64,000 nucleotides of DNA from Eledone cirrhosa (Eukaryota), in contig CAXHJY010001517.1 of assembly GCA_964016885.1 (NCBI GenBank), positions 18,645 to 82,644 on the forward strand. Direction: 5' to 3'. The position numbers and the translations under genes are program-made. Shown in pieces: positions 2,122 to 64,000 of the stretch (the first letter of the stretch is position 1; the number at the start of each line of letters is the position of its first letter). The notes below the pieces were generated by a model. It did not search any database. It worked only from the letters and a program-made list of their open reading frames with translations, and was not told where the DNA came from.

Positions 2122-3231
2122 CTGGCAGAAAAACCACGCTTCAGGTCGTTTTTCTGCTAGCATGTGTAGTGTGCATATTGATATTATACGCAAATATATA
2201 TGCATGGAGATATATGTCAAATAAAATCGTAATTGACAATATCCACAGAAATTGAACGAAGTCTGTGTTACACCCTCTTCTGTAATCAGTAAAGTAATCC
2301 ATGATACATTTAAAAAAGACGATATTATATATAAACTGCATTAGGAGAAAATTAGCGACGGAAATATATGCAATGTTTTTATAAGTGTTATAATATAACA
2401 GGCGCTAACCAGAAGTGTTAACATTTGAAAATTTTAAAGAAGTGAATTTTTAAATCATAATCTATAAAGCTCAGTGTATGGTCACGTTTCTTTGTTATAG
2501 AAATCTACGATATAGAATTTCTTCAATTGGGTCATGGCACATATATATTTTTCAATTTCACCCACAATTACGCAAAAAATCGATAAAACTCAATATTTTA
2601 CGATTTTCCTCTTCCCATTACCATTCAAAATCTATACAATTTCATACTTTCTGCTACTTTCTCTTTCCAAGCTGAAACAACACGTAAAATGAAACTAAAT
2701 TATTCTTTTCATTTTACATTGTTCATGTTGATGGTGATGGTGATACTGTCCATTTTACTCTCTCATATCATCTGCTCTCCTCTATCTACAACCCACGCAT
2801 TTTGCTACTTTCTCTTTTATACTAAATTTGGTTTATTCACCGTTAGCAGCTACGCGCATCTTTTAAAAATGTGAGTTACAATGTTTTTCAATCGTTCCTT
2901 GGTCTAACTTTTAGTTGCTTCAAACTTACTGATTTATTTCCAAACGCATACAAACACACACTCACTTCAAATGATAAAAAAACATTTAAAGCAATTAAAC
3001 AACGTGCGTGATTTATAACCACACTAACTTTTAGTTGCTTCAAACTTACTGATTTATTTACAAACACATACAAACACACACTCACATAAATTGATTTAAA
3101 AAAATTTAAAGCAATTAAACAACGTGCAGGATTTATAACCACAAATACACACTTCATTAAAAAATAAACTAATAATTTCGACAATTCTTTTCTTTAAATC
3201 GTAAAATTAAAGTCTTCAAATTTATTATTAT

Positions 3232-6629: not shown

Positions 6630-6820
6630 CTTTGACAGATCTGTTGGTATTGTTGTTTAGCCACAGTTCAACAGATCTGTTGGTATAGTTGCTTAAACTC
6701 AGTTCAGCAGATCTGTTGGTATAGTTGTTTAGTCCCAGTCCAGCAGATCTGTTAGTATAATTGTTTAACCTCAGTTTAGCAGACCTGTTGGTATTGTTAT
6801 TTAACCTCAGTTCAACAGAC
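6630..6820. repeat. ~36-bp minisatellite, ~5 copies
   Basis: cagatctgttggta(t/a)(t/a)gttgttta...cagtt recurs at ~36-bp spacing. Confidence 0.8.
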
Positions 6821-7066: not shown

Positions 7067-8630
7067 CTGGTGGGCTCTTAGAAAACTAGGTGTTGATGAA
7101 TGGCTTGTGAGAGCTATACAAGCCATGTATAAAGAAACAGTCAGCAAGGTTAGAATTAACAACGAATATAGTGAAGAGTTTAGCGTAAAAGTTGGTGTTC
7201 ATCAGGGCTCTGTTCTTAGCCCCCTACTATTTATTATTGCCCTTTAGGCTATAACAGTGGAGTTCAAGACCGGCTGCCCATGGGAACTCCTATACGCAGA
7301 TGATCTAACGCTCATAGCTGAATCAATGGCCAAACTAGAGAAGAAATTCCAAACATGGAAGCATGGCCTAGAATCAAAAGGCCTTAAAATTAACCTATCT
7401 AAGACTAAAGTTCTAGTTTGTAGGAAGGAAAATAGGGCACCGGTCCCATCCAGGAAATGGCCATGCTCAGTGTGTAGGAAAGGAGTAGGTAGAAACTCCA
7501 TTTTATGTCCCAAATGCAAAGTATGGGTGCATAAAAGATGTAGTGGGATCACAGGTAAGCTAACTAAGAACATAGATTTTATATGTGGCCAGTGCTCTGG
7601 TGCAATAAGTAGCAGCAAGTGCCCACAGAATACTAGCTCATTCCATTGCACAGATGGTTCTATAGAAATAGTGGACACCTTCCGTTACTTGGGTGACAAA
7701 ATCAGCAGTGGGGGAGGGTGCTCTGAAAGTACAGTAGCTAGAGTCAGAACTGGATGGAAAAAGTTCAGAGAGCTAATACCACTATTAGCCGCTAAAGGGT
7801 TCTCTCTAAAAATGAAAGGCAGGCTGTATGATGCCTGCATACGAACAGCAATGTTACATGGCAGTGAGACCTGGGCATTGTGTGCAGACGATATATGCAG
7901 ACTGGAGAGGAACGAAGCTTGCATGCTCCGCTGGATGTGTAATAGTAATATACGTGAACGGCAAAGCATAAACGAACTAAGGGAAAAATTAGAAATAAGA
8001 GGGATCAGATGTTGTTTACTCGAGAGAAGACTACGTTGGTACGGTCACGTGAAAGACGACAGCTGTATAAAAAAGTGCAGGGCAATAAAAATAGACGGTA
8101 GTCACAGAGTAGGCAGACCCAGAAAAAGCTGGGACGACTTGATAAATTCCGACCTCACACACTTACACCTCTCCAAGACAATGTCACTGGACCGAGATCT
8201 TTGGCGCTACACAGTAATACAGAAGACCCACCTTACCTAAGTACAAAGTGAAACCTACTAGTCAGTAGGCACCTCTAACAAAATACACCTCCGTCCCACT
8301 ACCCCCACCCTATCCACACCACCCCTTTCAATGTAAAGTTATGTTGGTACCACAACATCCAGTCCGAAACAAATGAGGTCGTGTAGGTGTCACGACAAAA
8401 AAAACACACAGTCCACGCTGTAATGTGGCCGTGTAGGTAACACAGTAAAAACCTCCCAGTCCACACTGTAAACGTGGTTGGTGTTAGGAAGGACATCCAG
8501 CCGTAGAAAACCCGCCAGACAGTCCTATGCGAGCAAGACAACCACTCTTGCCTCAAGTGGGAAAACTCCCGTCCAAACCCATGCAAGCGTGGAAGATGGA
8601 CGTTAAACGATGATGATGATGATGATGATT
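7067..8630 (+). mobile_element. 5'-truncated RTE-clade LINE with PHD finger inside RT, 3' UTR and (TGA)n tail
   Basis: WWALRKLG...GVHQGSVLSPLLF...ELLYADDL...KTKVL-[PHD]-FRYLGD...MLHGSETW...RLRWYGHV...GRPRKSW. The 3' UTR ends ggacgttaaacgatgatgatga. Confidence 0.95.
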
Positions 8631-10269: not shown

Positions 10270-10965
10270 GTGTAAGACAGTAGTGCTGGTGCTACAATAA
10301 AATGTTCCTAGTCCACATTGTATAATGATAGTGCTGGTGCCATGATAAAAAGCAATCAGTATGCATCATAAGGGAGTAGTGCTTGTGCCAAGATGAAAAG
10401 ATCCCAGTCCACCCTGTAAGGCAGTAGTGTGGTTTCCACAATTAAATGCATCCAGTCTGTACTGTAAGGCAGTAGTTCTGGTGCAATGATAAAAAAGCAC
10501 CCAGTCTGTAGTGTAAGGCAGTAGTGCAGGAGGTGCCAAGATAAAAAGCTCCCAGTATGCACTGTAATGTGGTTGTATTGGTGTCATGATAAAAAAAAAC
10601 CAATCCGCACTGTAAGGCAGTAATGCTGGTGCCATTATAAAAAGCACCCAAATCTGCACTGTAAGGCGGTAATGTTGGTGCCATTATAAAAGTACAGAGT
10701 TTGCACCTAGTCTGCACTGTAAGATGGCAATACTAGTGCTATGATAAAAAGCACCCAGTCTGCTCTATAAGGTAGTAGTGCTGGTGTCACAATAAAAAGC
10801 ACAAGTACATGATAAAATGCTACCAGTACATGCTGAAATGTGGTTGACATTAAGAAAGGAAACCAAGCCAAAAATGGAGAGCATGGCCACCTGACTTGTT
10901 TGGCCTTAGATAACCCATGTAATCCATCCAAGCACAGAAAATAGACAAAAGGTGATGATGATGAG
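10270..10965 (+). repeat. ~49-bp tandem repeat (about 10 copies) derived from the RTE 3' UTR, followed by the RTE-type tail
   Basis: Unit ataaaaagcacccagtctgcactgtaaggcagtagtgctggtgccatg resembles aaaaacctcccagtccacactgtaaa at 8447-8471. The block ends in gatgatgatga. Confidence 0.75.
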
Positions 10966-18310: not shown

Positions 18311-18987
18311 TCATTTTATGCCTGCTTTTCTTTGCTTGCAAGGGTGACTCACACACACACACACACACACATATTTGATTTCAATATTTCCAGTAGAGGT
18401 TGCTTTTGCTGCTATTGTTATATACTTGTTCTTCAGAGCTTATCACTTTATAACCTACATCCTGCTTTCCGCTTTCTGAACAGCTTTACAGTGGCACCTT
18501 GACAACTAGTACCTTCTGTAATCAATTCAATATCTTATTATCACTTGATTTATCCAGGAAATGAGATCTAAATTTAACTGGTCTTACCAATGTTGATAGC
18601 TGTTGACAAATATACAGATATTTCTAAGAATATTTACTCACCTAATCACCAACCTAGCTTCATATTTACCTCCAGCAATCTAACAATAGGACTAGACTTG
18701 TCAATGGATGCAGTTTTCACGCTGAGCATTCAATCGTTTGACTTGTGAATTAAAGGTTAAGTGGTTGAGTATTCCACAGCCATATGTATCCTTAATGTAA
18801 TTCCCAAGCTGAATCAGCATGACAATGTGTGACACGGCTGGACCTCTGAATGCAGGTACAGTCTGTATGATGGGCTTCCAAATAGTTGCCAAATACCGTT
18901 TTATTCACAAGTCGTTGCACCATGGAATTGAACCCGAGACCTCATGATTGCAAAGCAAACAATTTAACCACTCTGCCATACCTGCTT

Positions 18988-19852
18988 TGTTTCTCTTTGC
19001 CATAGCCATTGACTGGGTACTAAGAAGAGCGTCTAAAGACCAAGGTATATCTTGGGTGGGAGAGCAAAAGTTGTCTGACCTGGACTTTGCGGACGATATT
19101 GCTGCACTTGCAGAGAGCACAGCTGACCTGCAAATCATTGTGAACAATATCAATGTCGAAGCAGGAAGCTTAGGTCTCAATATCAGTGCCAAGAAGACCA
19201 AAACCATGTTATCTGGGACACACCCACCACCAACCAGTGTCTTCATTGAACAGGGGGAGGTGGAGATAGTGGATAACTTCACCTACCTAGGAAGCTCCAT
19301 TGACAATGGAGGCGCCATGGACAGTGAACTGCAATGTAGAATGGGAAAAGCTTCAGCAGCATTTAACCAGCTTGACAAGATCTGGAGGAGCAGGAAGTTC
19401 ACCCTCAAAACAAAGATGAGATTCTACAACATCAACGTGCTGTCCACACTCTTGTACGGAAGTGAAACATGGCACCTTAAGACCAGCCAAGAGAAGAAGT
19501 TGGACGCATTCGATTCCAGATGTCTGCAAAAGATCCTGGAGATTAAATGGAGTGACCATGTAACAAACCAGGAAGTCAGGAACCGCACCAACCAGCAGCT
19601 AGTCTCTTCTACCATCTGCAAGCGACGCCTGGGCTAGTTTGGACACGCTTTGAGACTTCCCCCGGAGAGACTGGCGAACCAAGTACTTAAATGAAGCCCG
19701 CAGGGAAGCAGATGGAGAGGGCGACCCAAAATGAACTGGCACCAGACAAACAGACAATGGCGGGACGCTGTGCAACTGGCTGCTGACCGAACGCGATGGA
19801 ACACTATGATTGCCTCATGCGTCGCAAGATGCGGGAGCTTCTGAGTCTGAGT
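18988..19852 (+). mobile_element. 5'-truncated RTE LINE (family lacking the PHD insert) with an 11-bp TSD, inserted into a tRNA-SINE head
   Basis: LSDLDFADDIA...GLNISAKKTK...FTYLGS...LLYGSETW, a ctgagtctgagt tail, and TSD catacctgctt at 18977-18987 and 19853-19863. Confidence 0.92.
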
Positions 19853-32044: not shown

Positions 32045-32603
32045 TTAACTAGATTGATTCAATGTACTTACTAGATCAATATATTCTGGAAACTGCGAGG
32101 ATATAAACTTAGATCAGCTCAATGTATTCACTAGATCAATATATTCTGGAAACTGCCAGATATAAACTGAGATCAGCTCAATGTACTCACTAGATCAATA
32201 TATTCTGGAAACTGCCAAGATATAAACTTAGATCAGCTCAATGTACTTACTAGATCAATATATTCAGCAAACTAGCAAGATTTAACCCTTTAGCATTTAA
32301 ACCGGCCGTATCCGACCAGATTTCTCTCACTTTTTCTGTTTAAATCAGCTGTAACTTGCCGCTCATACTAATGTTAAGATATTGTTCTCAAAATAAATAA
32401 TATTGAAATCTCAGATTCCATATTATGTGAGATAATTATGTGTGATAAAGCTTTTACCATGAAAATACAATAGTAAATATAAAGTAATGTGAATGCTAAA
32501 GGGTTAAACTTAGATCAAATCAATGTATTCACTAAATCAATATATTCTGCAAACTGCCAAGATATAAACTTAGATCAGCTCAATATATTCACTAGATCAA
32601 TAT
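32045..32603. repeat. ~59-bp minisatellite (5-6 copies) interrupted by a family A MITE at 32286-32503
   Basis: ctagatcaatatattctggaaactgccaagatataaacttagatcagctcaatgta repeated. The MITE has TTAA flanks and both TIRs. Confidence 0.85.
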
Positions 32604-47164: not shown

Positions 47165-48490
47165 ATGGTCATGCGCCGAGTGACCAGGAGACCCGCATGG
47201 TTAAAGGATTTCATTACTTCCTATCAGCCTTCATGCTCCCGTTCCCAACACCCCCTTTTCATTCCAAGGGAGTTAAATTGCATCCCCTACCACTCCCCTC
47301 CCACCCCATCGCCGGATTCTGTTGAAATTAGTTCTACTCATCCTGTCATCCACCCTACCAGTCCCGTAAAAGCTAGTTTGCCTCCAACGTCATCTTCTCC
47401 CCAACCGAGTCCCACTGACAGGGGCAACGCTGATCATCCGGTCGCTCCTACTACCTCCACCGTCTTACCCCTATCTGAACCCTAATTCTAATGTTGACTC
47501 CTCAGCTGTTGCCAATTCACCACCAAACTGCGCCCTCTGCTCCTGAACCAGTCGTTACCTAAAGACAATTGCATGTTACTCCTGCCGTCAAAATTATCAC
47601 AGGAGCTTCATTGGCATTACTAAGGTTCAAGCTGACAGTTTCTCAAACTTGACGTGTAACCAATGTCACTTCAGGTCTGAACCTAACTCTGACGTTCAGA
47701 TCTCTGTTGAGGACTTTTTAACTCTAACCCTAACCCTCTGGGACTTGTCGAAGTTGAAACTCATCAACAGGATCCCAAAGGGAGCTCGGTCCAGTTTTGC
47801 CCGTGCTCTCTCCAAGCTGCTGAAGAACATTTGCCTATCCAACAACATCTTGGATTGGCAGAAACTATTCTTGTTCCCTTTAGTCTCTCTCCACGTGTCC
47901 AATGTGAAATTCAGATCCCTTGCATCCTCCCTAAAACAGCAGTTTGAGTTGTTTGATTCAACTCCAATTACTGTTCATCTCAGGTCGGCAATCAACTTAG
48001 TTCCCACAAATGGTTGATCGCCAATCTTAAAGAAGGCTGTCAATGCTAAATTCAATGAATTTGACATTAAAGGGGCTGTTCGCCTCCTCTCTTCTCTGTC
48101 ATCTCTTGCCCAGTGCACTACAGAGTCACTCAACCGACTGAGAGTGAAATATCCTCTGGCTACTCCAGATGACCTCCAGGTCATTTGCAACCTGGTTTCA
48201 CCCCAGCTATTGTCAGGAGGGCAATAATATCCTTTCCGGCGGGTTCTGGTGCTGGGATTGATGGCCTTCGAACTCAGCACCTCAAGGATGGTGTCTCCTT
48301 GTCAGCTGGAGATGCTAGCCTTGAGCTCTTAGAGAACCTCACCCATTTCACCAACCTGTTCTCTTCCAAGAATGTCCTCTCTTATATCCGTCCCTTGTTC
48401 TTTGGAGCTAAACTGTTTGGTCCCACAGAGCCCAATAGTGACCTCTGCCCCATAGCAGTTGGGTGCACTCTGCGATGTCTGTCTTCGATT
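47165..48490 (+). mobile_element. Decayed 5' part of a CRE-clade-like non-LTR retrotransposon (N-terminal PHD, start of RT)
   Basis: RIPKGAR...DWQKLFLF, AVNAKFNEFDIKGAVRLLSS, RRAIISFPAGSGAGIDGLRTQHLKD, FFGAKL and PIAVGCTLR across frameshifts. Truncated by a MITE near 48515. Confidence 0.75.
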
Positions 48491-49021
48491 TCAGACAGCC
48501 TGTCCACCAAATTTTTTCATTAACATATTTCTAATGAAAGACTGCTTATAATTTTAAGATAATTTTGAAAGTAATCAAGAATTTATAAGGATTTAGTAAT
48601 ATAACTATCTCATTATAAAGCTGGGGTTTAGAACACAACAAAGTTCTTACATGAAGTTATGATGGAAAGTTTTTAGAAAAATATAAACTCTTGATAATTT
48701 TATGTAAGACCATTTGTAAGACCATTATATTTTAATCACCATCTTAATAAGAATAAAGTTAGTTATTTTACTAAATCCTTTCAATTTTTGTTATCATTTT
48801 CGAAATGATTTGAAAATAATAGGCATAGACAGTGGATTTCCTTAGAAATATGGCAGTGAATGTGTTAAAGAAATCAACATAATTATTTGGTGACTAGTGG
48901 AACAGTGCCGCCAATAATGACAGCAATAGTGTTGAATGTATTTCATTTTTGGAATCCAGAATTAATATGCTATATATATACCAAGATTACTTGATATATG
49001 AATAACCATACAAACTTAAAT

Positions 49022-49448: not shown

Positions 49449-50941
49449 ATCATCATCTTCGTTTAACGTCCATCTTCCACGCTAGCATGGGTTAGACGAG
49501 AGTTGTCCCACTTGAGGCAGGGTTGGTTGGGTGACCGTGTCTTGCTCATATAGGACTATCTGGCAGGTTTTCTACGGCTGGATGCCCTTCCTAATACCAA
49601 CCACATGTACAGTGTGGAACTGGGAACTTTTTACCGTGTTACCTACACGGCCACATTAAAGCGTGGACTGTGTTTTTTTGTCGTGACACCTACACAATCT
49701 CGATCTCATTATCTCATTTATTTGGACTGGATGTTGTGGTACCAACTTTACAGAGAGAGGGTGGTGGGAGTGGGAGGATAGGGTAGGGGTAGTGGATTGG
49801 GCTGTATATTTGGTTAAGAGGTGCCTACTGACTGTAGGTTTCGCTTTGTACACAGGCAAGGCGGGTCTTCTGTATTACTGCGTAGCGCAAAAGGTCTCGG
49901 TTCAGTGACATTGTCTTAGAGAGGTGCAAGTGTGTAAGGTCGAAATTTATCAAATCGTCCCAGGTTTTCTGGGTCTACCTACTCTGTAACTACCATCAAT
50001 TTTGATCGCCCTGCACTTTTTTATACAGCTGACGTCTTTCATGTGCATCACGTGACCATACCAACATAGTCTTCTCTCGAGTAAACAGCATATGATCCCT
50101 CTTATTCCTAATTTCTCACTTAGTTCATTTATGCTTTGCCGTTCACGTATATTACTATTACACATCCAACGGAGCATGCATGCTTCGTTCCTTTCCAGTC
50201 TGCACAGGTCCTCTTCACGTAATGCCCATGTCTCACTGCCATGTAGCATTTCTGTTTGTATACAGGCATCATACAATCTGCCTTTCATTTTGAGAGAGAA
50301 ACCTTTTGTGGCCAACAGCGGTATAAACTCTCTGAACTTTTTCCATCCCGTTCTGACTCTGGCTACTGTACTTTCAGAACACCCGCCACTGCTGCTGATT
50401 TCGTCACCCAGGTAACGGAAAGTGTCTACTATTTCTATAGAACCATCTGGGCAATAGAAGGAGCTAGTATCCTTTGGACACTTGCTACTTATTGCACCTG
50501 AGCATCGGCCACATATAAAGTCTATGTTCTTAGATAGTTTACCTGTGATCCCACTACATCTTTTATGTACCCATACTTTGCATTTGAGACATAAAATGGA
50601 ATTTCTGCCTACTCCTTTCCTACACACTGAGCATGGCCATTTCCCTGGGGACACCTGTGCCCTATTTTCCTTTCTACAAAATAGAACTTTAGTATTAGAC
50701 AAGTTAACTTTAAGGCCTTTTGATTCTAGGCCATGCTTCCATGTTTGGAATTTCTTCTCTAGTTCAGCCATTGATTCAGCTATGAGCGTTAGATCATCTG
50801 CGTATAGGAGTTCCCATGGGCAGCCGGTCTTGAACTCCTCTGTTATAGCCTGAAGGGCAATAATAAATAGGAGGGGGCTAAGGACAGAGCCTTGATGAAC
50901 ACCAACTTTTACACTAAATTTTTCACAATATTCATTGTTAA
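49449..50941 (-). mobile_element. RTE LINE 3' half with PHD-containing RT, closely related to 7067-8630
   Basis: ORF 49950-50771 plus upstream GVHQGSVLSP/LYADDL. The 3' UTR and tail are at 49449, and the 5' break abuts the tandem array. Confidence 0.95.
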
Positions 50942-53900
50942 TAATATTATGATGTTCCCTGCTGTATTAGCGTTAAATTTTCCCTGCTGTATTAGCGATA
51001 AATTTTCGAGGGTTTCTCTTAGTAGCTTTTTCATGTCGTTAATATTATGATGTTCCCTGCTGTATTAGCGTTAAATTTTCCCTGCTGTATTAGCGATAAA
51101 TTTTCGAGGGTTTCTCTTAGTAGCTTTTTTCATGACGTTATTATTGTTAATTTTACTGATGTAGTATTAACTTATTAACTTGGATATTTACCATGCGGTA
51201 TTCTAATCCTATTGTATCTCTCTCAGTTATTTACCATGCGACCCTCAGTTCCTACCCCCCCCCCTCTATGCACTTCTTTAAGGCTTACTACCCTGTCTTT
51301 AACCTAATTCATTCAATCTGAAAATATTGAAGAGATAAGACACTTTGCCATTCTTCTCTGCTAAAATGTACCACTGAGCTGATTCAAATTTTCCCAGCCA
51401 GCCATCCACCTAATCTACGAAGGTATTTTAGCCTACATATTGTCGTTAATATTATGATGTTCCCTGCTGTATTAGCGTTAAATTTTCCCTGCTGTATTAG
51501 CGATAAATTTTCGAGGGTTTCTCTTAGTAGCTTTTTCATGTCGTTAATATTATGATGTTCCCTGCTGTATTAGCGTTAAATTTTCCCTGCTGTATTAGCG
51601 ATAAATTTTCGAGGGTTTCTCTTAGTAGCTTTTTTCATGACGTTATTATTGTTAATTTTACTGATGTAGTATTAACTTATTAACTTGGATATTTACCATG
51701 CGGTATTCTAATCCTATTGTATCTCTCTCAGTTATTTACCATGCGACCCTCAGTTCCTAACCCCCCCCCCCCCCTCTATGCACTTCTTTAAGGCTTACTA
51801 CCCTGTCTTTAACCTAATTCATTCAATCTGAAAATATTGAAGAGATAAGACACTTTGCCATTCTTCTCTGCTAAAATGTACCACTGAGCTGATTCAAATT
51901 TTCCCAGCCAGCCATCCACCTAATCTACGAAGGTATTTTAGCCTACATATTGTCGTTAATATTATGATGTTCCCTGCTGTATTAGCGTTAAATTTTCCCT
52001 GCTGTATTAGCGATAAATTTTCGAGGGTTTCTCTTAGTAGCTTTTTCATGTCGTTAATATTATGATGTTCCCTGCTGTATTAGCGTTAAATTTTCCCTGC
52101 TGTATTAGCGATAAATTTTCGAGGGTTTCTCTTAGTAGCTTTTTTCATGACGTTATTATTGTTAATTTTACTGATGTAGTATTAACTTATTAACTTGGAT
52201 ATTTACCATGCGGTATTCTAATCCTATTGTATCTCTCTCAGTTATTTACCATGCGACCCTCAGTTCCTACCCCCCCCCCCCCCCCCTCTATGCACTTCTT
52301 TAAGGCTTACTACCCTGTCTTTAACCTAATTCATTCAATCTGAAAATATTGAAGAGATAAGACACTTTGCCATTCTTCTCTGCTAAAATGTACCACTGAG
52401 CTGATTCAAATTTTCCCAGCCAGCCATCCACCTAATCTACGAAGGTATTTTAGCCTACATATTGTCGTTAATATTATGATGTTCCCTGCTGTATTAGCGT
52501 TAAATTTTCCCTGCTGTATTAGCGATAAATTTTCGAGGGTTTCTCTTAGTAGCTTTTTCATGTCGTTAATATTATGATGTTCCCTGCTGTATTAGCGTTA
52601 AATTTTCCCTGCTGTATTAGCGATAAATTTTCGAGGGTTTCTCTTAGTAGCTTTTTTCATGACGTTATTATTGTTAATTTTACTGATGTAGTATTAACTT
52701 ATTAACTTGGATATTTACCATGCGGTATTCTAATCCTATTGTATCTCTCTCAGTTATTTACCATGCGACCCTCAGTTCCTACCCCCCCCCCCCCCTCTAT
52801 GCACTTCTTTAAGGCTTACTACCCTGTCTTTAACCTAATTCATTCAATCTGAAAATATTGAAGAGATAAGACACTTTGCCATTCTTCTCTGCTAAAATGT
52901 ACCACTGAGCTGATTCAAATTTTCCCAGCCAGCCATCCACCTAATCTACGAAGGTATTTTAGCCTACATATTGTCGTTAATATTATGATGTTCCCTGCTG
53001 TATTAGCGTTAAATTTTCCCTGCTGTATTAGCGATAAATTTTCGAGGGTTTCTCTTAGTAGCTTTTTCATGTCGTTAATATTATGATGTTCCCTGCTGTA
53101 TTAGCGTTAAATTTTCCCTGCTGTATTAGCGATAAATTTTCGAGGGTTTCTCTTAGTAGCTTTTTTCATGACGTTATTATTGTTAATTTTACTGATGTAG
53201 TATTAACTTATTAACTTGGATATTTACCATGCGGTATTCTAATCCTATTGTATCTCTCTCAGTTATTTACCATGCGACCCTCAGTTCCTACCCCCCCCCC
53301 CCCTCTATGCACTTCTTTAAGGCTTACTACCCTGTCTTTAACCTAATTCATTCAATCTGAAAATATTGAAGAGATAAGACACTTTGCCATTCTTCTCTGC
53401 TAAAATGTACCACTGAGCTGATTCAAATTTTCCCAGCCAGCCATCCACCTAATCTACGAAGGTATTTTAGCCTACATATTGTCGTTAATATTATGATGTT
53501 CCCTGCTGTATTAGCGTTAAATTTTCCCTGCTGTATTAGCGATAAATTTTCGAGGGTTTCTCTTAGTAGCTTTTTCATGTCGTTAATATTATGATGTTCC
53601 CTGCTGTATTAGCGTTAAATTTTCCCTGCTGTATTAGCGATAAATTTTCGAGGGTTTCTCTTAGTAGCTTTTTTCATGACGTTATTATTGTTAATTTTAC
53701 TGATGTAGTATTAACTTATTAACTTGGATATTTACCATGCGGTATTCTAATCCTATTGTATCTCTCTCAGTTATTTACCATGCGACCCTCAGTTCCTACC
53801 CCCCCCCCCCCTCTATGCACTTCTTTAAGGCTTACTACCCTGTCTTTAACCTAATTCATTCAATCTGAAAATATTGAAGAGATAAGACACTTTGCCATTC

Positions 53901-54730
53901 TTCTCTGCTAAAATGTACCACTGAGCTGATTCAAATTTTCCCAGCCAGCCATCCACCTAATCTACGAAGGTATTTTAGCCTACATATTGTCGTTAATATT
54001 ATGATGTTCCCTGCTGTATTAGCGTTAAATTTTCCCTGCTGTATTAGCGATAAATTTTCGAGGGTTTCTCTTAGTAGCTTTTTCATGTCGTTAATATTAT
54101 GATGTTCCCTGCTGTATTAGCGTTAAATTTTCCCTGCTGTATTAGCGATAAATTTTCGAGGGTTTCTCTTAGTAGCTTTTTTCATGACGTTATTATTGTT
54201 AATTTTACTGATGTAGTATTAACTTATTAACTTGGATATTTACCATGCGGTATTCTAATCCTATTGTATCTCTCTCAGTTATTTACCATGCGACCCCTCA
54301 GTTCCTACCCCCCCCCCCCCCTCTATGCACTTCTTTAAGGCTTACTACCCTGTCTTTAACCTAATTCATTCAATCTGAAAATATTGAAGAGATAAGACAC
54401 TTTGCCATTCTTCTCTGCTAAATGTACCACTGAGCTGATTCAAATTTTCCCAGCCAGCCATCCACCTAATCTACGAAGGTATTTTAGCCTACATATTGTC
54501 GTTAATATTATGATGTTCCCTGCTGTATTAGCGTTAAATTTTCCCTGCTGTATTAGCGATAAATTTTCGAGGGTTTCTCTTAGTAGCTTTTTCATGTCGT
54601 TAATATTATGATGTTCCCTGCTGTATTAGCGTTAAATTTTCCCTGCTGTATTAGCGATAAATTTTCGAGGGTTTCTCTTAGTAGCTTTTTTCATGACGTT
54701 ATTATTGTTAATTTTACTGATGTAGTATTA
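50942..54730. repeat. Tandem array of a ~510-bp composite unit (7 full copies plus a partial)
   Basis: Marker ctctatgcac recurs at about 51263, 51774, 52286, 52795, 53303, 53811, 54321. Copies differ mainly in poly-C length. Confidence 0.95.
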
Positions 54731-57700
54731 ACTTGGATATTTACCATGCGACCCTCAGTTCCTACCTCACAATAAATTTTCCCCTGCTGTATTAGCGATA
54801 AATTTTCGAGGGTTTCTCTTAGTAGCTTTTTTCATGACGTTATTATTGTTAATTTTACTGATGTAGTATTAACTTGGATATTTACCATGCGACCCTCAGT
54901 TCCTACCTCACAATAAATTTTCCCTGCTGTATTAGCGATAAATTTTCGAGGGTTTCTCTTAGTAGCTTTTTTCATGACGTTATTATTGTTAATTTTACTG
55001 ATGTAGTATTAACTTGGATATTTACCATGCGACCCTCAGTTCCTACCTCACAATAAATTTTCCCTGCTGTATTAGCGATAAATTTTCGAGGGTTTCTCTT
55101 AGTAGCTTTTTTCATGACGTTATTATTGTTAATTTTACTGATGTAGTATTAACTTGGATATTTACCGAAATGCGACCCTCAGTTCCTACCTCACAATAAA
55201 TTTTCCCTGCTGTATTAGCGATAAATTTTCGAGGGTTTCTCTTAGTAGCTTTTTTCATGACGTTATTATTGTTAATTTTACTGATGTAGTATTAACTTGG
55301 ATATTTACCATGCGACCCCTCAGTTCCTACCTCACAATAAATTTTCCCTGCTGTATTAGCGATAAAATTTTCGAGGGTTTCTCTTAGTAGCTTTTTTCAT
55401 GACGTTATTATTGTTAATTTTACTGATGTAGTATTAACTTGGATATTTACCATGCGACCCTCAGTTCCTACCTCACAATAAATTTTCCCTGCTGTATTAG
55501 CGATAAATTTTCGAGGGTTTCTCTTAGTAGCTTTTTTCATGACGTTATTATTGTTAATTTTACTGATGTAGTATTAACTTGGATATTTACCATGCGACCC
55601 TCAGTTCCTACCTCACAATAAATTTTCCCTGCTGTATTAGCGATAAATTTTCGAGGGTTTCTCTTAGTAGCTTTTTTCATGACGTTATTATTGTTAATTT
55701 TACTGATGTAGTATTAACTTGGATATTTACCATGCGAACCCTCAGTTCCTACCTCACAATAAATTTTCCCTGCTGTATTAGCGATAAATTTTCGAGGGTT
55801 TCTCTTAGTAGCTTTTTTCATGACGTTATTATTGTTAATTTTACTGATGTAGTATTAACTTGGATATTTACCATGCGACCCTCAGTTCCTACCTCACAAT
55901 AAATTTTCCCTGCTGTATTAGCGATAAATTTTCGAGGGTTTCTCTTAGTAGCTTTTTTCATGACGTTATTATTGTTAATTTTACTGATGTAGTATTAACT
56001 TGGATATTTACCATGCGACCCTCAGTTCCTACCTCACAATAAATTTTCCCTGCTGTATTAGCGATAAATTTTCGAGGGTTTCTCTTAGTAGCTTTTTTCA
56101 TGACGTTATTATTGTTAATTTTACTGATGTAGTATTAACTTGGATATTTACCATGCGACCCTCAGTTCCTACCTCACAATAAATTTTCCCTGCTGTATTA
56201 GCGATAAATTTTCGAGGGTTTCTCTTAGTAGCTTTTTTCATGACGTTATTATTGTTATTTTACTGATGTAGTATTAACTTGGATATTTACCATGCGACCC
56301 TCAGTTCCTACCTCACAATAAATTTTCCCTGCTGTATTAGCGATAAATTTTCGAGGGTTTCTCTTAGTAGCTTTTTTCATGACGTTATTATTGTTAATTT
56401 TACTGATGTAGTATTAACTTGGATATTTACCATGCGACCCTCAGTTCCTACCTCACAATAAATTTTCCCTGCTGTATTAGCGATAAATTTTCGAGGGTTT
56501 CTCTTAGTAGCTTTTTTCATGACGTTATTATTGTTAATTTTTACTGATGTAGTATTAACTTGGATATTTACCATGCGACCCTCAGTTCCTACCTCACAGA
56601 TAAATTTTCCCTGCTGTATTAGCGATAAATTTTCGAGGGTTTCTCTTAGTAGCTTTTTTCATGACGTTATTATTGTTAATTTTACTGATGTAGTATTAAC
56701 TTGGATATTTACCATGCGACCCCTCAGTTCCTACCTCACAATAAATTTTCCCTGCTGTATTAGCGATAAATTTTCGAGGGTTTTCTCTTAGTAGCTTTTT
56801 TCATGACGTTATTATTGTTAATTTTACTGATGTAGTATTAACTTGGATATTTACCATGCGACCCTCAGTTCCTACCTCACAATAAATTTTCCCTGCTGTA
56901 TTAGCGATAAATTTTCGAGGGTTTCTCTTAGTAGCTTTTTTCATGACGTTATTATTGTTAATTTTACTGATGTAGTATTAACTTGGATATTTACCATGCG
57001 ACCCTCAGTTCCTACCTCACAATAAATTTTCCCTGCTGTATTAGCGATAAATTTTCGAGGGTTTCTCTTAGTAGCTTTTTTCATGACGTTATTATTGTTA
57101 ATTTTACTGATGTAGTATTAACTTGGATATTTACCATGCGACCCTCAGTTCCTACCTCACAATAAATTTTCCCTGCTGTATTAGCGATAAATTTTCGAGG
57201 GTTTCTCTTAGTAGCTTTTTTCATGACGTTATTATTGTTAATTTTACTGATGTAGTATTAACTTGGATATTTACCATGCGACCCTCAGTTCCTACCTCAC
57301 AATAAAATTTTCCCTGCTGTATTAGCGATAATTTTCGAGGGTTTCTCTTAGTAGCTTTTTTCATGACGTTATTATTGTTAATTTTACTGATGTAGTATTA
57401 ACTTGGATATTTACCATGCGACCCTCAGTTCCTACCTCACAATAAATTTTCCCTGCTGTATTAGCGATAAATTTTCGAGGGTTTCTCTTAGTAGCTTTTT
57501 TCATGACGTTATTATTGTTAATTTTACTGATGTAGTATTAACTTGGATATTTACCATGCGAACCCTCAGTTCCTACCTCACAATAAATTTTCCCTGCTGT
57601 ATTAGCGATAAATTTTCGAGGGTTTCTCTTAGTAGCTTTTTTTCATGACGTTATTATTGTTAATTTACTGATGTAGTATTAACTTGGATATTTACCATGC

Positions 57701-60700
57701 GACCCTCAGTTCCTACCTCACAATAAATTTTCCCTGCTGTATTAGCGATAAATTTTCGAGGGTTTCTCTTAGTAGCTTTTTTCATGACGTTATTATTGTT
57801 AATTTTACTGATGTAGTATTAACTTGGATATTTACCATGCGACCCTCAGTTCCTACCTCACAATAAATTTTCCCTGCTGTATTAGCGATAAATTTTCGAG
57901 GGTTTCTCTTAGTAGCTTTTTTCATGACGTTATTATTGTTAATTTTACTGATGTAGTATTAACTTGGATATTTTACCATGCGACCCTCAGTTCCTACCTC
58001 ACAATAAATTTTCCCTGCTGTATTAGCGATAAATTTTCGAGGGTTTCTCTTAGTAGCTTTTTTCATGACGTTATTATTGTTAATTTTACTGATGTAGTAT
58101 TAACTTGGATATTTACCATGCGACCCTCAGTTCCTACCTCACAATAAATTTTCCCTGCTGTATTAGCGATAAATTTTCGAGGGGTTTCTCTTAGTAGCTT
58201 TTTTCATGACGTTATTATTGTTAATTTTACTGATGTAGTATTAACTTGGATATTTACCATGCGACCCTCAGTTCCTACCTCACAATAAATTTTCCCTGCT
58301 GTATTAGCGATAAATTTTCGAGGGTTTCTCTTAGTAGCTTTTTTCATGACGTTATTATTGTTAATTTTACTGATGTAGTATTAACTTGGATATTTACCAT
58401 GCGACCCTCAGTTCCTACCTCACAATAAATTTTCCCTGCTGTATTAGCGATAAATTTTCGAGGGTTTCTCTTAGTAGCTTTTTTCATGACGTTATTATTG
58501 TTAATTTTACTGATGTAGTATTAACTTGGATATTTACCATGCGACCCTCAGTTCCTACCTCACAATAAATTTTCCCTGCTGTATTAGCGATAATTTTCGA
58601 GGGTTTCTCTTAGTAGCTTTTTTCATGACGTTATTATTGTTAATTTTACTGATTGTAGTATTAACTTGGATATTTACCATGCGACCCTCAGTTCCTACCT
58701 CACAATAAATTTTTCCCTGCTGTATTAGCGATAAATTTTCGAGGGTTTCTCTTAGTAGCTTTTTTCATGACGTTATTATTGTTAATTTTACTGATGTAGT
58801 ATTAACTTGGATATTTACCATGCGGACCCTCAGTTCCTACCTCACAATAAATTTTCCCTGCTGTATTAGCGATAAATTTTCGAGGGTTTCTCTTAGTAGC
58901 TTTTTTCATGACGTTATTATTGTTAATTTTACTGATGTAGTATTAACTTGGATATTTACCATGCGACCCTCAGTTCCTACCTCACAATAAATTTTCCTGC
59001 TGTATTAGCGATAAATTTTCGAGGGTTTCTCTTAGTAGCTTTTTTCATGACGTTATTATTGTTAATTTTACTGATGTAGTATTAACTTGGATATTTACCA
59101 TGCGACCCTCAGTTCCTACCTCACAATAAATTTTCCCTGCTGTATTAGCGATAAATTTTCGAGGGTTTCTCTTAGTAGCTTTTTTCATGACGTTATTATT
59201 GTTAATTTTACTGATGTAGTATTAACTTGGATATTTACCATGCGACCCTCAGTTCCTACCTCACAATAAATTTTCCCCTGCTGTATTAGCGATAAATTTT
59301 CGAGGGTTTCTCTTAGTAGCTTTTTTCATGACGTTATTATTGTTAATTTTACTGATGTAGTATTAACTTGGATATTTACCATGCGACCCTCAGTTCCTAC
59401 CTCACAATAAATTTTCCCTGCTGTATTAGCGATAAATTTTCGAGGGTTTCTCTTAGTAGCTTTTTTCATGACGTTATTATTGTTAATTTTACTGATGTAG
59501 TATTAACTTGGATATTTACCATGCGGAACCCTCAGTTCCTACCTCACAATAAATTTTCCCTGCTGTATTAGCGATAAATTTTCGAGGGTTTCTCTTAGTA
59601 GCTTTTTTCATGACGTTATTATTGTTAATTTTACTGATGTAGTATTAACTTGGATATTTACCATGCGACCCTCAGTTCCTACCTCACAATAAAATTTTCC
59701 CTGCTGTATTAGCGATAAATTTTCGAGGGTTTCTCTTAGTAGCTTTTTTCATGACGTTATTATTGTTAATTTTACTGATGTAGTATTAACTTGGATATTT
59801 ACCATGCGACCCTCAGTTCCTACCTCACAATAAATTTTCCCTGCTGTATTAGCGATAAATTTTCGAGGGTTTCTCTTAGTAGCTTTTTTCATGACGTTAT
59901 TATTGTTAATTTTACTGATGTAGTATTAACTTGGATATTTACCATGCGACCCTCAGTTCCTACCTCACAATAAATTTTCCCTGCTGTATTAGCGATAAAT
60001 TTTCGAGGGTTTCTCTTAGTAGCTTTTTTCATGACGTTATTATTGTTAATTTACTGATGTAGTATTAACTTGGATATTTACCATGCGACCCTCAGTTCCT
60101 ACCTCACAATAAATTTTCCCTGCTGTATTAGCGATAAATTTTCGAGGGTTTCTCTTAGTAGCTTTTTTCATGACGTTATTATTGTTAATTTTACTGATGT
60201 AGTATTAACTTGGATATTTACCATGCGACCCTCAGTTCCTACCTCACAATAAATTTTCCCTGCTGTATTAGCGATAAATTTTCGAGGGTTTCTCTTAGTA
60301 GCTTTTTTCATGACGTTATTATTGTTAATTTTACTGATGTAGTATTAACTTGGATATTTACCATGCGACCCTCAGTTCCTACCTCACAATAAATTTTCCC
60401 TGCTGTATTAGCGATAAATTTTCGAGGGTTTCTCTTAGTAGCTTTTTTCATGACGTTATTATTGTTAATTTTACTGATGTAGTATTAACTTGGATATTTA
60501 CCATGCGACCCTCAGTTCCTACCTCACAATAAATTTTCCCTGCTGTATTAGCGATAAATTTTCGAGGGTTTCTCTTAGTAGCTTTTTTCATGACGTTATT
60601 ATTGTTAATTTTACTGATGTAGTATTAACTTGGATATTTACCATGCGACCCTCAGTTCCTACCTCACAATAAATTTTCCCTGCTGTATTAGCGATAAATT

Positions 60701-63614
60701 TTCGAGGGTTTCTCTTAGTAGCTTTTTTCATGACGTTATTATTGTTAATTTTACTGATGTAGTATTAACTTGGATATTTACCATGCGACCCTCAGTTCCT
60801 ACCTCACAATAATTTTCCCTGCTGTATTAGCGATAAATTTTCGAGGGTTTCTCTTAGTAGCTTTTTTCATGACGTTATTATTGTTAATTTTACTGATGTA
60901 GTATTAACTTGGATATTTACCATGCGACCCTCAGTTCCTACCTCACAATAAATTTTCCCTGCTGTATTAGCGATAAATTTTCGAGGGTTTCTCTTAGTAG
61001 CTTTTTTCATGACGTTATTATTGTTAATTTTACTGATGTAGTATTAACTTGGATATTTACCATGCGACCCTCAGTTCCTACCTCACAATAAATTTCCCTG
61101 CTGTATTAGCGATAAATTTTCGAGGGTTTCTCTTAGTAGCTTTTTTCATGACGTTATTATTGTTAATTTTACTGATGTAGTATTAACTTGGATATTTACC
61201 ATGCGACCCTCAGTTCCTACCTCACAATAAATTTTCCCTGCTGTATTAGCGATAAATTTTCGAGGGTTTCTCTTAGTAGCTTTTTTCATGACGTTATTAT
61301 TGTTAATTTTACTGATGTAGTATTAACTTGGATATTTACCATGCGACCCTCAGTTCCTACCTCACAATAAATTTTCCCTGCTGTATTAGCGATAAATTTT
61401 CGAGGGTTTCTCTTAGTAGCTTTTTTCATGACGTTATTATTGTTAATTTTACTGATGTAGTATTAACTTGGATATTTACCATGCGACCCTCAGTTCCTAC
61501 CTCACAATAAATTTTCCCTGCTGTATTAGCGATAAATTTTCGAGGGTTTCTCTTAGTAGCTTTTTTCATGACGTTATTATTGTTAATTTTACTGATGTAG
61601 TATTAACTTGGATATTTACCATGCGACCCTCAGTTCCTACCTCACAATAAATTTTCCCTGCTGTATTAGCGATAAATTTTCGAGGGTTTCTCTTAGTAGC
61701 TTTTTTCAATGACGTTATTATTGTTAATTTTACTGATGTAGTATTAACTTGGATATTACCATGCGACCCTCAGTTCCTACCTCACAATAAATTTTCCCTG
61801 CTGTATTAGCGATAAATTTTCGAGGGGTTTCTCTTAGTAGCTTTTTTCATGACGTTATTATTGTTAATTTTACTGATGTAGTATTAACTTGGATATTTAC
61901 CATGCGACCCTCAGTTCCTACCTCACAATAAATTTTCCCTGCTGTATTAGCGATAAATTTTCGAGGGTTTCTCTTAGTAGCTTTTTTCATGACGTTATTA
62001 TTGTTAATTTTACTGATGTAGTATTAACTTGGATATTTACCATGCGACCCTCAGTTCCTACCTCACAATAAATTTTCCCTGCTGTATTAGCGATAAATTT
62101 TCGAGGGTTTCTCTTAGTAGCTTTTTTCATGACGTTATTATTGTTAATTTTACTGATGTAGTATTAACTTGGATATTTACCATGCGACCCTCAGTTCCTA
62201 CCTCACAATAAATTTTCCCTGCTGTATTAGCGATAAATTTTCGAGGGTTTCTCTTAGTAGCTTTTTTCATGACGTTATTATTGTTAATTTTACTGATGTA
62301 GTATTAACTTGGATATTTACCATGCGACCCTCAGTTCCTACCTCACAATAAATTTTCCCTGCTGTATTAGCGATAAATTTTCGAGGGTTTCTCTTAGTAG
62401 CTTTTTTCATGACGTTATTATTGTTAATTTTACTGATGTAGTATTAACTTGATATTTACCATGCGACCCTCAGTTCCTACCTCACAATAAATTTTCCCTG
62501 CTGTATTAGCGATAAATTTTCGAGGGGTTTCTCTTAGTAGCTTTTTTCATGACGTTATTATTGTTATATTTACTGATGTAGTATTAACTTGGATATTTAC
62601 CATGCGACCCTCAAGTTTCCTACCTCACAATAAATTTTCCCTGCTGTATTAGCGATAATTTTCGAGGGTTTCTCTTAGTAGCTTTTTTCATGACGTTATT
62701 ATTGTTAATTTTACTGATGTAGTATTAACTTGGATATTTACCATGCGACCCTCAGTTCCTACCTCACAATAAATTTTCCCTGCTGTATTAGCGATAAATT
62801 TTCGAGGGTTTCTCTAGTAGCTTTTTTCATGACGTTATTATTGTTAATTTTACTGATGTAGTATTAACTTGGATATTTACCATGCGACCCTCAGTTCCTA
62901 CCTCACAATAAATTTTCCCTGCTGTATTAGCGATAAATTTTCGAGGTTTCTCCTTGAGTAGCTTTTTTCATGACGTTATTATTGTTAATTTTACTGATGT
63001 AGTATTAACTTGGATATTTACCATGCGACCCTCAGTCCTACCTCACAATAAATTTCCTGCTGTATTAGCGATAAATTGTTCGAGGGTTTCTCTTAGTAGC
63101 TTTTTTCAATGACGTTTATTATTGTTAATTTTACTGATGTAGTATTAACTTGGATATTTACCATGCGACCCTCAGTTCCTACCTCACAATAAATTTTCCC
63201 TGCTGTATTAGCGATAAATTTTCGAGGGTTTCTCTTAGTAGCTGTTTTCATGACGTTATTATTGTTAATTTTACTGATGTAGTATTAACTTGGATATTTA
63301 CCATGCACCCTCAGTTCCTACCTCCACAATAAATTTTCCCTGCTGGTATTAGCGATAAATTTTCGAGGGTTTCTCTTAGTAGCTTTTTTCATGACGTTAT
63401 TATTGTTAATTTTACTGATGTAGTATTAACTTGGATATTTACCATGCGACCCTCAGTTCCTACCTCACAATAAATTTTCCCTGCTGTATTAGCGATAAAT
63501 TTTCGAGGGTTTCTCTTAGTAGCTTTTTTCATGGACTGTTATTATTGTTAATTTTACTGATGTAGTATTAACTTGGATATTTACCATGCGGACCCCTCAG
63601 TTCCTACCTCACAA
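54640..63614. repeat. 140-bp satellite, ~64 near-identical copies
   Basis: Monomer aataaattttccctgctgtattagcgataaattttcgagggtttctcttagtagcttttttcatgacgttattattgttaattttactgatgtagtattaacttggatatttaccatgcgaccctcagttcctacctcac. The repeated ORF starts are 140 bp apart. Confidence 0.98.
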
Positions 63615-64000
63615 TTTCCCTCCCCCCCACCCCCACACACCACCATAGTCTATTCGACCAATCAAACCTAGCATGCCATTTCACTGCTGCTGCTGCTACT
63701 ACCTGCCTAACTAACTCTCTCCTCCTCTGGCGCATCCCCAACACACCCATGGCCATTACCCCACCACCACTGTCCTTCTAGCCTCAATTTTCCCACCGTT
63801 AGGGATGGATGAGCTGGGAATACACGAGCAACTCTGAAATCAATAGATGAAATATGAATCTGCGAGCTACAAGCACCACCGTGAAGCGCCAACCCAGAGA
63901 CCCTCCCCTACGAGTGTCGACAAATGCCCAAAACCTCCGAGTTGGTACATCAATGTAGGCTCAATGAAAGGAAGAGCAGGAGAAATCGTAGAAATGCTAG
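63615..64000 (+). mobile_element. 5' region of an RTE LINE, start of the APE endonuclease; continues off the right edge
   Basis: 63934-64000 reads LRVGT-(1-nt frameshift)-INVGSMKGRAGEIVEML, the R-x-G-T-x-N-V first motif of RTE endonucleases. Confidence 0.8.

Follow-up and report, generated by a model that had tools for sequence, protein, structure and literature searches.

Among the closest described systems is mouse L1 (A, Gf and Tf), which carries a variable number of tandem monomers at its 5' end, upstream of a unique UTR and with the outermost monomer cut; most copies have 2-5 monomers of ~200 bp (bioRxiv 10.1101/2022.08.06.500894, available text). The routes by which monomers could be regained are given there as speculation and comprise unequal crossing-over, slippage, second-strand mispairing and template switching by the reverse transcriptase (RT) (bioRxiv 10.1101/2022.08.06.500894, available text). 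The LINE from Eledone cirrhosa described here is similar in that variable tandem units stand at its 5' end, upstream of a unique UTR, and in that the outermost unit is cut. However, the Eledone leader is nested (25 within 98 within ~510 bp), is 2 kb long on average, with a maximum of at least 12.7 kb; its 5' ends do not pile up within the unit, new unit types arise at the border between leader and body, and the element appears from its domains to be of the single-ORF RTE type.

In Dictyostelium the A-module of TRE5-A comes in tandem copies. This ~200-bp module forms the 5' part of a non-LTR element and acts as a promoter (PMC3159450, accessible part). Unlike the Eledone LINE, TRE5-A belongs to another clade and is site-specific, and the accessible part of that paper describes no kilobase arrays (PMC3159450). 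The octopus element RTE-2_OV is a recently active single-ORF RTE LINE with endonuclease and RT (PMC9115989); it has an ORF of 1109 aa with a C2H2 finger and a 5' UTR of ~600 nt, and the word "tandem" is absent from the main text of its description. The Eledone element likewise combines endonuclease and RT in a single ORF, but this ORF has 1039 aa and a PHD finger; the two elements are set apart here by description and not by sequence.

It is already a known theme that transposon-borne repeats grow into arrays. TIR-220 of Tetris is a tandem repeat that seeds satellites (PMC4079207, accessible part), and PisTR-A of Ogre, the central repeats of DINE, CRM-TR and the 3' satellites of L1 and CR1 are other mobile-element repeats that have grown into arrays (PMC9659126). 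In the accessible text of the latter review the LINE-derived satellites come from ORF2 or the 3' end and none from a LINE 5' leader, and RTE does not appear as a word. As in the Tetris, Ogre and DINE cases, internal repeats of a mobile element have expanded to kilobase arrays in Eledone. Unlike transposon-seeded satellites, the Eledone arrays stay on intact, very young elements, with no free-standing array in the clusters checked. The literature that we searched, mostly open-access and exclusive of Repbase and supplements, yielded no kilobase tandem leader in an RTE.

The window, i.e. the whole stretch of 64,000 nucleotides that was analyzed, stops where contig C1544 (82,644 bp) ends; position 64000 is therefore an assembly break and not the end of a LINE. 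Positions 49449..50942 contain, on the minus strand, the last 1.5 kb, at the 3' end, of an older LINE of the PHD-RTE type; translation and Pfam identify the C-terminal half of the RT, a PHD finger, the 3' UTR and a (GAT)n tail. This agrees with the initial annotation, which was also correct in that a tandem array directly adjoins this piece, that a plus-strand LINE 5' region, placed here from 63616 onward, follows the array and that there is no unique DNA at either border of the array. Its description of a 12.7-kb satellite with a 140-bp unit holds for the array but not for the single unit, as two types of unit were found. The first part (50943..54632, plus strand) consists of ~7.3 copies of a ~510-bp composite leader unit, its 5' end being cut within a unit. 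In the second part (54633..63615, plus strand), the final 140 bp of the family leader have been tandemly duplicated to give a unit that is present 64 times. The 5' UTR and the ORF start (ATG at 63854) of a young PHD-RTE-type LINE follow at 63616..64000 on the plus strand, where the contig end cuts the element.

The continuation was located on another contig, C1502, via the exact 140-bp junction. The order on C1502 is a 140-bp array, a complete young-family element with a 3.6-kb body and its own (GAT)n tail, and the remaining 236 bp of the left element. The left piece in the window is 94-95% identical to its nine best other copies of its own family, and the 236-bp continuation is 89-94% identical to eight of nine old-family copies. 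A comparison of both junctions with nine uninterrupted copies of the old family identified a 3-bp target-site duplication, with one copy at 50940..50942 (plus strand) and the second after the (GAT)n tail on C1502. Because the old element resumes behind the complete young element and the 3-bp duplication, the sequences indicate that the locus is most likely a nested insertion of a young LINE in an older LINE of another family. A nested insertion as such is ordinary. The join between C1544 and C1502 is one of sequence continuity, with no single read or contig spanning the whole insertion. The two contigs carry 64 (C1544) and 93 or more (C1502) copies of the 140-bp unit, a disagreement that may reflect alleles or an assembly error. 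With 3 bp the duplication is below the 7-15 bp that are usual for RTE (PMC6007223, available text); of the 36 sister copies for which both ends are present, most lie in TA-rich or tandem repeats, which hide any target-site duplication. Neither flank was found elsewhere in searches for a second copy or an empty allele of the locus (40 candidates scored per search). The contigs listed in four public runs included neither a bridge across the left junction nor an empty site, which is no proof of absence.

The coding part of the young element is seen in the sister copy L044. It has a single long ORF of 1039 aa, in which an APE endonuclease (PF03372, 32-172) is followed by an RT (PF00078, 557-761) and a PHD finger (777-820); the body has no other frame of >300 codons. 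The 3' end is a short microsatellite, the (GAT)n tail, in sister copies as well as on C1502. From this domain architecture the element can be labeled an RTE-type LINE. A search of the ESM Atlas returned unnamed clusters with RT, endonuclease and PHD. The mean difference among 20 young bodies is 0.12%, and a frame of at least 1,037 codons is preserved in 16 of them; judged by this divergence, the right-hand family is young. Exact matches in the genome number 363 for the leader/body junction and 1,608 for the unit block, and the copies that bear a leader are put at ~360-460.

As an alternative, the initial annotation had regarded the monomer as a 5' leader of the LINE in tandem copies, and the other members of the family support this view. 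A leader of 62 bp to 8.3 kb is present in 57 of 58 other copies examined; the 59 loci are a non-random sample, including the 37 best matches to the window and 20 from lists for the contig C1. The proposed mapping of the monomer across the genome gave the same picture, in that every one of the 33 unit clusters inspected on C1 lies directly 5' of a LINE, as shown by the exact motif for 26 of them and by fetched sequence for the other 7. These clusters come from the first 100 of 1,608 unit matches; together with all three contigs that carry the 140-bp junction they are LINE-linked, and no free-standing array was found among them.

The 5' ends of the leaders are uniform over the unit (BLAST; KS p 0.31 and 0.89 for the two unit blocks tested, n=56) and do not cluster within it, with at most 6 of 56 ends per 11-base window when subunits are pooled. 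The lengths fit an exponential with a mean of 2.0 kb (p 0.58, n=58). Copies are lost at a similar rate in the leader (0.49/kb) and in the mid-body (0.41/kb), and these three results speak for random truncation. Between mid-body and border the rate is 1.06-1.32/kb and hence above that of the leader, indicating that truncation is not one smooth process. Inverted leader pieces at the 5' end of two of the 59 loci, together with a 140-bp junction common to an independent insertion on contig C7, indicate that the leader is carried on RNA. The comparison with mouse L1 makes it plausible that the leader unit acts as a promoter.

The ~510-bp unit combines a variable poly-C and a 177-bp unique block with two subunits of 98 bp, and each subunit contains a 25-bp repeat twice. 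In the window these units are identical except for the length of the poly-C and isolated single-base indels. The exact 140-bp junction has 159 matches genome-wide, namely 51 in the window, 91 on C1502 and 17 on C7. The 140-mers of the window share no recurrent substitution; 52 single-base indels and 3 substitutions are scattered across 62 monomers, and scattered single-base indels also occur in the last 385 bp of the window. The indels in the 140-bp part resemble those that a low-coverage consensus would have, and this noise makes the count of 64 copies soft. The insertion on C7 is flanked by different sequences, and there as in the window the 510-bp units stand 5' of the 140-bp block, which is thus internal. 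A ribozyme or rolling-circle retrozyme origin of the array was rejected for lack of Rfam support, as a search of the curated families for hammerhead or HDV-like ribozymes in unit and border (E up to 10) gave only sub-threshold, unrelated matches. Inspection by eye of the unit junctions showed no splice dinucleotides.

Some variants are private to one locus. One point variant occurs in 16 of 16 units of one locus and, genome-wide, at no other; a 261-bp unit has 20 exact junction matches in the genome, all at one locus. Since whole arrays are fixed for private variants or new units, the arrays likely grow locally. A private variant could also derive from a source element missing from the assembly, and polishing can exaggerate the likeness among repeat copies. 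The suggestion that retrotransposition is coupled to the birth or spread of the satellite is borne out for spread, while birth and growth look local to each locus. The new unit types are 62, 70, 140 and 261 bp long. All four of the new back-jump junctions have their ends within the same 14 bases, adjacent to a predicted G-quadruplex motif at the leader/body border; the chance of this is about 1e-3 to 1e-4, calculated post hoc. The motif, found by a pattern scan of L044, has four G3 runs and corresponds to 63618..63634 on the minus strand, the strand made first by the reverse transcriptase. In L044 (1.3 kb of leader plus body) only two motifs of this type occur, one at the border and the other in the poly-C of the unit. 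One deletion, in L038, also ends at the leader/body border, which may simply be a fragile site.

We consider it probable that the array belongs to a young endonuclease/RT/PHD LINE as its tandem-repeat 5' leader. Most likely this LINE entered an older LINE of another family as a single unit of 16-20 kb, and its repeats were likely amplified at or near the locus. Source RNAs would carry several leader units and reverse transcription would stop randomly inside them, so that no copy shows a unique 5' end. The new unit types likely arise by stalling at the quadruplex motif of the border, where a polymerase with the G-rich strand as template would slip back; as soon as a unit is present twice, its rapid multiplication by slippage and unequal exchange is likely. 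A seed could travel with the RNA, as the 140-bp junction appears to have done to two separate sites.

The initial annotation had favored another origin, in which one RTE insertion was inverted by twin priming and its internal junction captured and amplified a 140-bp sequence. In L1, twin priming gives 5' inversions with a head-to-head geometry, and it needs two pieces of one element within one target duplication. The locus is alike in its geometry and 5' inversions do exist in the young family. However, the two pieces are not halves of one RTE but belong to different families (~75% DNA identity, 77% protein identity), and no duplication encloses both, as the 3 bp flank the young element alone. 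The right element had been predicted to stop near the equivalent of position 50941; it is full length on C1502, runs to its own tail and is followed there by the old element. The gttaat microhomology of 6 bases proposed for the left junction is out of register by 3 bases, and these 3 bases are the target-site duplication. With the monomer being the family's own leader, twin priming is refuted for practical purposes. It is also very unlikely that a noisy read or a slipped overlap inflated or invented the long 140-bp array. An artefact would be in line with the unplaced contig, the indel noise throughout the 140-bp part and the different lengths on C1544 and C1502; in addition, the 140-bp joint is not among the matches listed in the four public runs, although this does not prove its absence. 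Against this, the same junction occurs in 17 clean copies on the chromosome-scale contig C7, without a gap, and in the 91 exact copies on C1502. Furthermore, the leader with its 98-bp loop is present in contigs of four public runs with three organism labels, and in one such contig leader and body are joined. What is doubtful about the 140-bp array is at most its copy number.

Two other explanations bear on the proposed local growth. In one of them, which we hold to be possible but rather doubtful, the array would arise during integration itself, with either the reverse transcriptase or the synthesis of the second strand halting at the G-rich border of the new cDNA and copying one stretch many times over. 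Leaders tend to be longest where the body is youngest (Spearman rho -0.37, p 0.025, n=36), although this trend is confounded by subfamily and sampling. The locus L041 has 0 body substitutions, yet it carries about 21 perfect copies of a private unit; the breakpoints lie directly beside a motif that the first-strand cDNA carries, and the lack of recurrent substitutions in the 140-mers fits as well. But in L072, L049 and L042 variants return every 3-4 units, a pattern that requires blocks to have been duplicated one after another over time. Moreover, two sites inherited the 140-bp junction, and the copy number may differ at one site. The other explanation is inheritance alone, with no growth at the locus and all copies being truncated prints of a few source elements with very long arrays. 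Exponential lengths and uniform 5' ends favor it, as do the inverted pieces that point to a multi-unit RNA and the unit variants common to small sub-lineages, e.g. five loci on C1. It is already weakened and seems unlikely, because both variants tested genome-wide are confined to one locus each and because truncation cannot produce 17 versus 64 copies of a block that is internal.

The regain of tandem 5' units after truncation is still a matter of speculation in mouse L1 (bioRxiv 10.1101/2022.08.06.500894, available text). The Eledone leader resembles the mouse monomer arrays but is far longer, and near-identical copies of the young family number several hundred, their leaders ranging in length from zero to at least 12.7 kb. 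The private unit types and the breakpoint hot spot of this family let the competing routes of regain be told apart. The copies form a graded series from a LINE leader to a satellite-sized array on intact elements, and the family thus offers a natural series in which the birth of satellite-like DNA on a mobile element can be followed. Tentatively, this LINE may even write its own satellite: the G-quadruplex at the border would cause a polymerase to stall and re-copy during or just after integration, so that any new insertion could acquire a private array of tens of perfect repeats and the family would restore its leader in this manner. If true, this would directly explain how a LINE with a monomer leader gets it back.

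The DNA between the two LINE pieces consists of two arrays, as resolved by Tandem Repeats Finder and block mapping, and not of the one 140-bp satellite described in the initial annotation, which was right that LINE sequence flanks the array on both sides. About 7.3 copies of a composite unit of ~510 bp (50943-54632) are followed by 64 copies of a 140-bp unit (54633-63615). Within the composite unit, a pair of 98-bp subunits, both containing two 25-bp repeats, is followed by a ~135-bp block with a variable poly-C at its end and finally by a 177-bp block; the 140-bp unit duplicates the final 140 bases preceding the LINE body. To the left lies the 3' part of a minus-strand PHD-RTE-type LINE (49449-50942), which encodes RT and PHD domains and ends in a (GAT)n tail. 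To the right are the 5' UTR and ORF start of a plus-strand LINE of the same type, whose body begins at 63616; the right edge of the window (G000:C1544:18645-82644) is the end of contig C1544.

Over 62 monomers, the 140-bp part of the window has 3 substitutions and 52 columns with single-base indels. Identical monomers account for 88 of 91 on another contig, C1502, and for 16 of 16 at an independent insertion on the chromosome-scale contig C7, relative to which the last 358 bases of the window show 9 indels and a two-base swap. Alleles or assembly may account for the count of 64 and for its gap to the at least 93 units on C1502. Support for the 140-bp unit itself comes from the C7 copy, which is clean, free of gaps and differently flanked.

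The two LINE pieces had been interpreted as a single RTE inverted by twin priming. This explanation is refuted, because they belong to different families and the right element is complete on C1502. Against its nine best other copies the left piece shows 94-95% identity, but against the 3' half of full-length right-family copies only about 75% (DNA) and 77% (protein). Genome-wide there are 159 exact matches to the 140-bp junction: 51 in the window, 91 on C1502 and 17 on C7. C1502 terminates within its 140-bp array; next to the array comes a right-family element, 3.6 kb long and complete with tail. The 236 bases past this tail resume the left element exactly at the break point in the window, with 89-94% identity to eight of the nine old-family copies, and 3 bases common to both sides of the young element form a 3-bp target-site duplication. 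Because of this continuation and the duplication, C1544 and C1502 most likely represent two sides of one locus; judging from the sequences, a young element of 16-20 kb was most likely inserted into an older element, truncated at its 5' end and about 1.7 kb long. Among the 40 candidates scored per search, each flank of the insertion appeared a single time.

Most sister copies of the young LINE (L030-L110) with both ends visible lie in TA-rich microsatellites or other tandem repeats, a location that suggests a target preference. The window also holds a minus-strand young-family fragment at 101-682 (96.7% identity to sister copy L044 over 582 bp) and a plus-strand PHD-RTE LINE 3' piece at 7200-8500, which by its identity to the old (87%) and young (75%) families would be a third subfamily. 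A stop-free frame of 229 aa (18948-19637) is RT-like and would belong to another LINE type; one of 156 aa with a Cys/His-rich start (47547-48017) is possibly a retrotransposon N-terminus. A MITE-like inverted-repeat element of about 360 bp (48515-48875) has many ~80% relatives. Tandem repeats of 120 bp (2904-3143), 36 bp (6635-6819), 48 bp (10271-10802) and 60 bp (32059-32285) are also present.

The alternative offered in the initial annotation, that the monomer is a tandem 5' leader of the LINE, is borne out: leader blocks lie directly 5' of the body in 57 of 58 other copies. These copies were the 37 best matches to the last 385 bases of the window, 20 from lists for contig C1 (7 picked for a unit cluster without the exact border motif, 13 taken in order) and the C7 copy. 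With the window counted, the leader exceeds 1 kb in 37 of 59 loci and 5 kb in 6, and that of the window is the longest. Exact genome-wide counts along the young LINE are 11,251 at the 3' end, 1,828 at 1.8 kb and 1,267 at 2.7 kb from it, 363 at the border of leader and body, and 1,608 for the unique 177-bp block of the unit. The first 100 of these 1,608 matches fall into 33 clusters. Downstream of 26 lies the exact border motif, and fetched sequence shows that the remaining 7 also run into the LINE. Leader parts occur in public-run contigs under three organism labels, and one contig links leader to body. The right-hand family is very young: bodies differ by 0.12% on average (n=20) and a frame of at least 1,037 codons is intact in 16 of the 20, which were best matches and hence biased toward young copies. 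An older subfamily with a diverged unique block (L091, L092, L094, L096-L098, L100, L105, L106 and L108) has a ~410-bp unit with one 98-bp subunit, and 6-22 body substitutions in the 8 copies with a full body. In L101 (G000:C1:8878000-8887999) a further copy of the same family, itself truncated, lies inside the leader.

No copy among those examined reached a non-repeat 5' end of the leader. The 56 usable leader 5' ends are spread evenly across the unit (KS test: p 0.31 in the unique block and 0.89 in the 98-bp subunit), without the start-site pile-up expected from a unit-internal promoter. Leader lengths fit an exponential with a mean of 2.0 kb (p 0.58); the implied loss rate of 0.49/kb is near the 0.41/kb of the mid-body, and the rate just before the border, 1.06-1.32/kb, is above both. 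The leader 5' ends thus reflect ordinary random truncation of an RNA carrying several units. Inverted leader pieces at the 5' end of 2 of the 59 loci suggest that the leader was present on the RNA at insertion. These pieces, of 99 bp in L069 (G000:C2:119452000-119461999) and 1.18 kb in L070 (G000:C2:118388500-118398499), lie directly 5' of forward leader; by eye, the outer end of the inverted L070 piece and the start of its forward piece map within a few bases of each other, an arrangement expected from twin priming.

Four new back-jump junctions, of 62, 70, 140 and 261 bp, all end in the same 14-base stretch, immediately 5' of the border's C-rich tract, where a deletion in sister copy L038 also ends; the post hoc chance of such clustering is about 1e-3 to 1e-4. 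The standard unit ends at its own poly-C. A putative G-quadruplex-type motif lies on the minus strand at the border, and in 1.3 kb of leader plus body of L044 the only two such motifs are at the border and the poly-C. During plus-strand synthesis, whether in normal replication or as the second strand on new cDNA, a polymerase would meet the predicted motif exactly where the breakpoints lie, and new units could start by stalling and slipping there. Rfam contained no ribozyme matching the unit or border.

Units at one locus often share a constant number of 98-bp subunits, which varies among loci. A point variant present in 16 of 16 units at L049 has no other match in the genome, and all 20 exact junction matches of the 261-bp unit are at L041. 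Furthermore, the 140-bp block is internal to the leader, so truncation cannot account for 17 copies on C7 versus at least 64 at the present locus. Therefore the arrays likely grow at their own locus. Growth at insertion itself is still a live rival, as the youngest bodies carry the longest leaders (rho -0.37, p 0.025, n = 36); however, this trend is confounded by subfamily and sampling, and variants that return every 3-4 units in L072, L049 and L042 point to successive block duplications of DNA.

Satellites grown from transposon-internal repeats are well documented (PMC4079207; PMC9659126). The mouse L1 monomer promoter is the nearest known counterpart. Its ~200-bp units vary in number, mostly from 2 to 5, and how they are regained is speculatively attributed to unequal crossing-over, slippage, second-strand mispairing or template switching (10.1101/2022.08.06.500894). 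The octopus element RTE-2_OV has a ~600-nt 5' UTR, with tandem repeats unmentioned in the relevant portion of its description (PMC9115989), and the parts covered of a 2026 octopus repeat annotation contain nothing on tandem LINE leaders (PMC13282606). The nested insertion is in itself an ordinary event. What it brought to view is unusual: in this young PHD-RTE-type LINE, the tandem leader runs to kilobases, consists of repeats nested inside repeats, likely grows locally and has a breakpoint hot spot.
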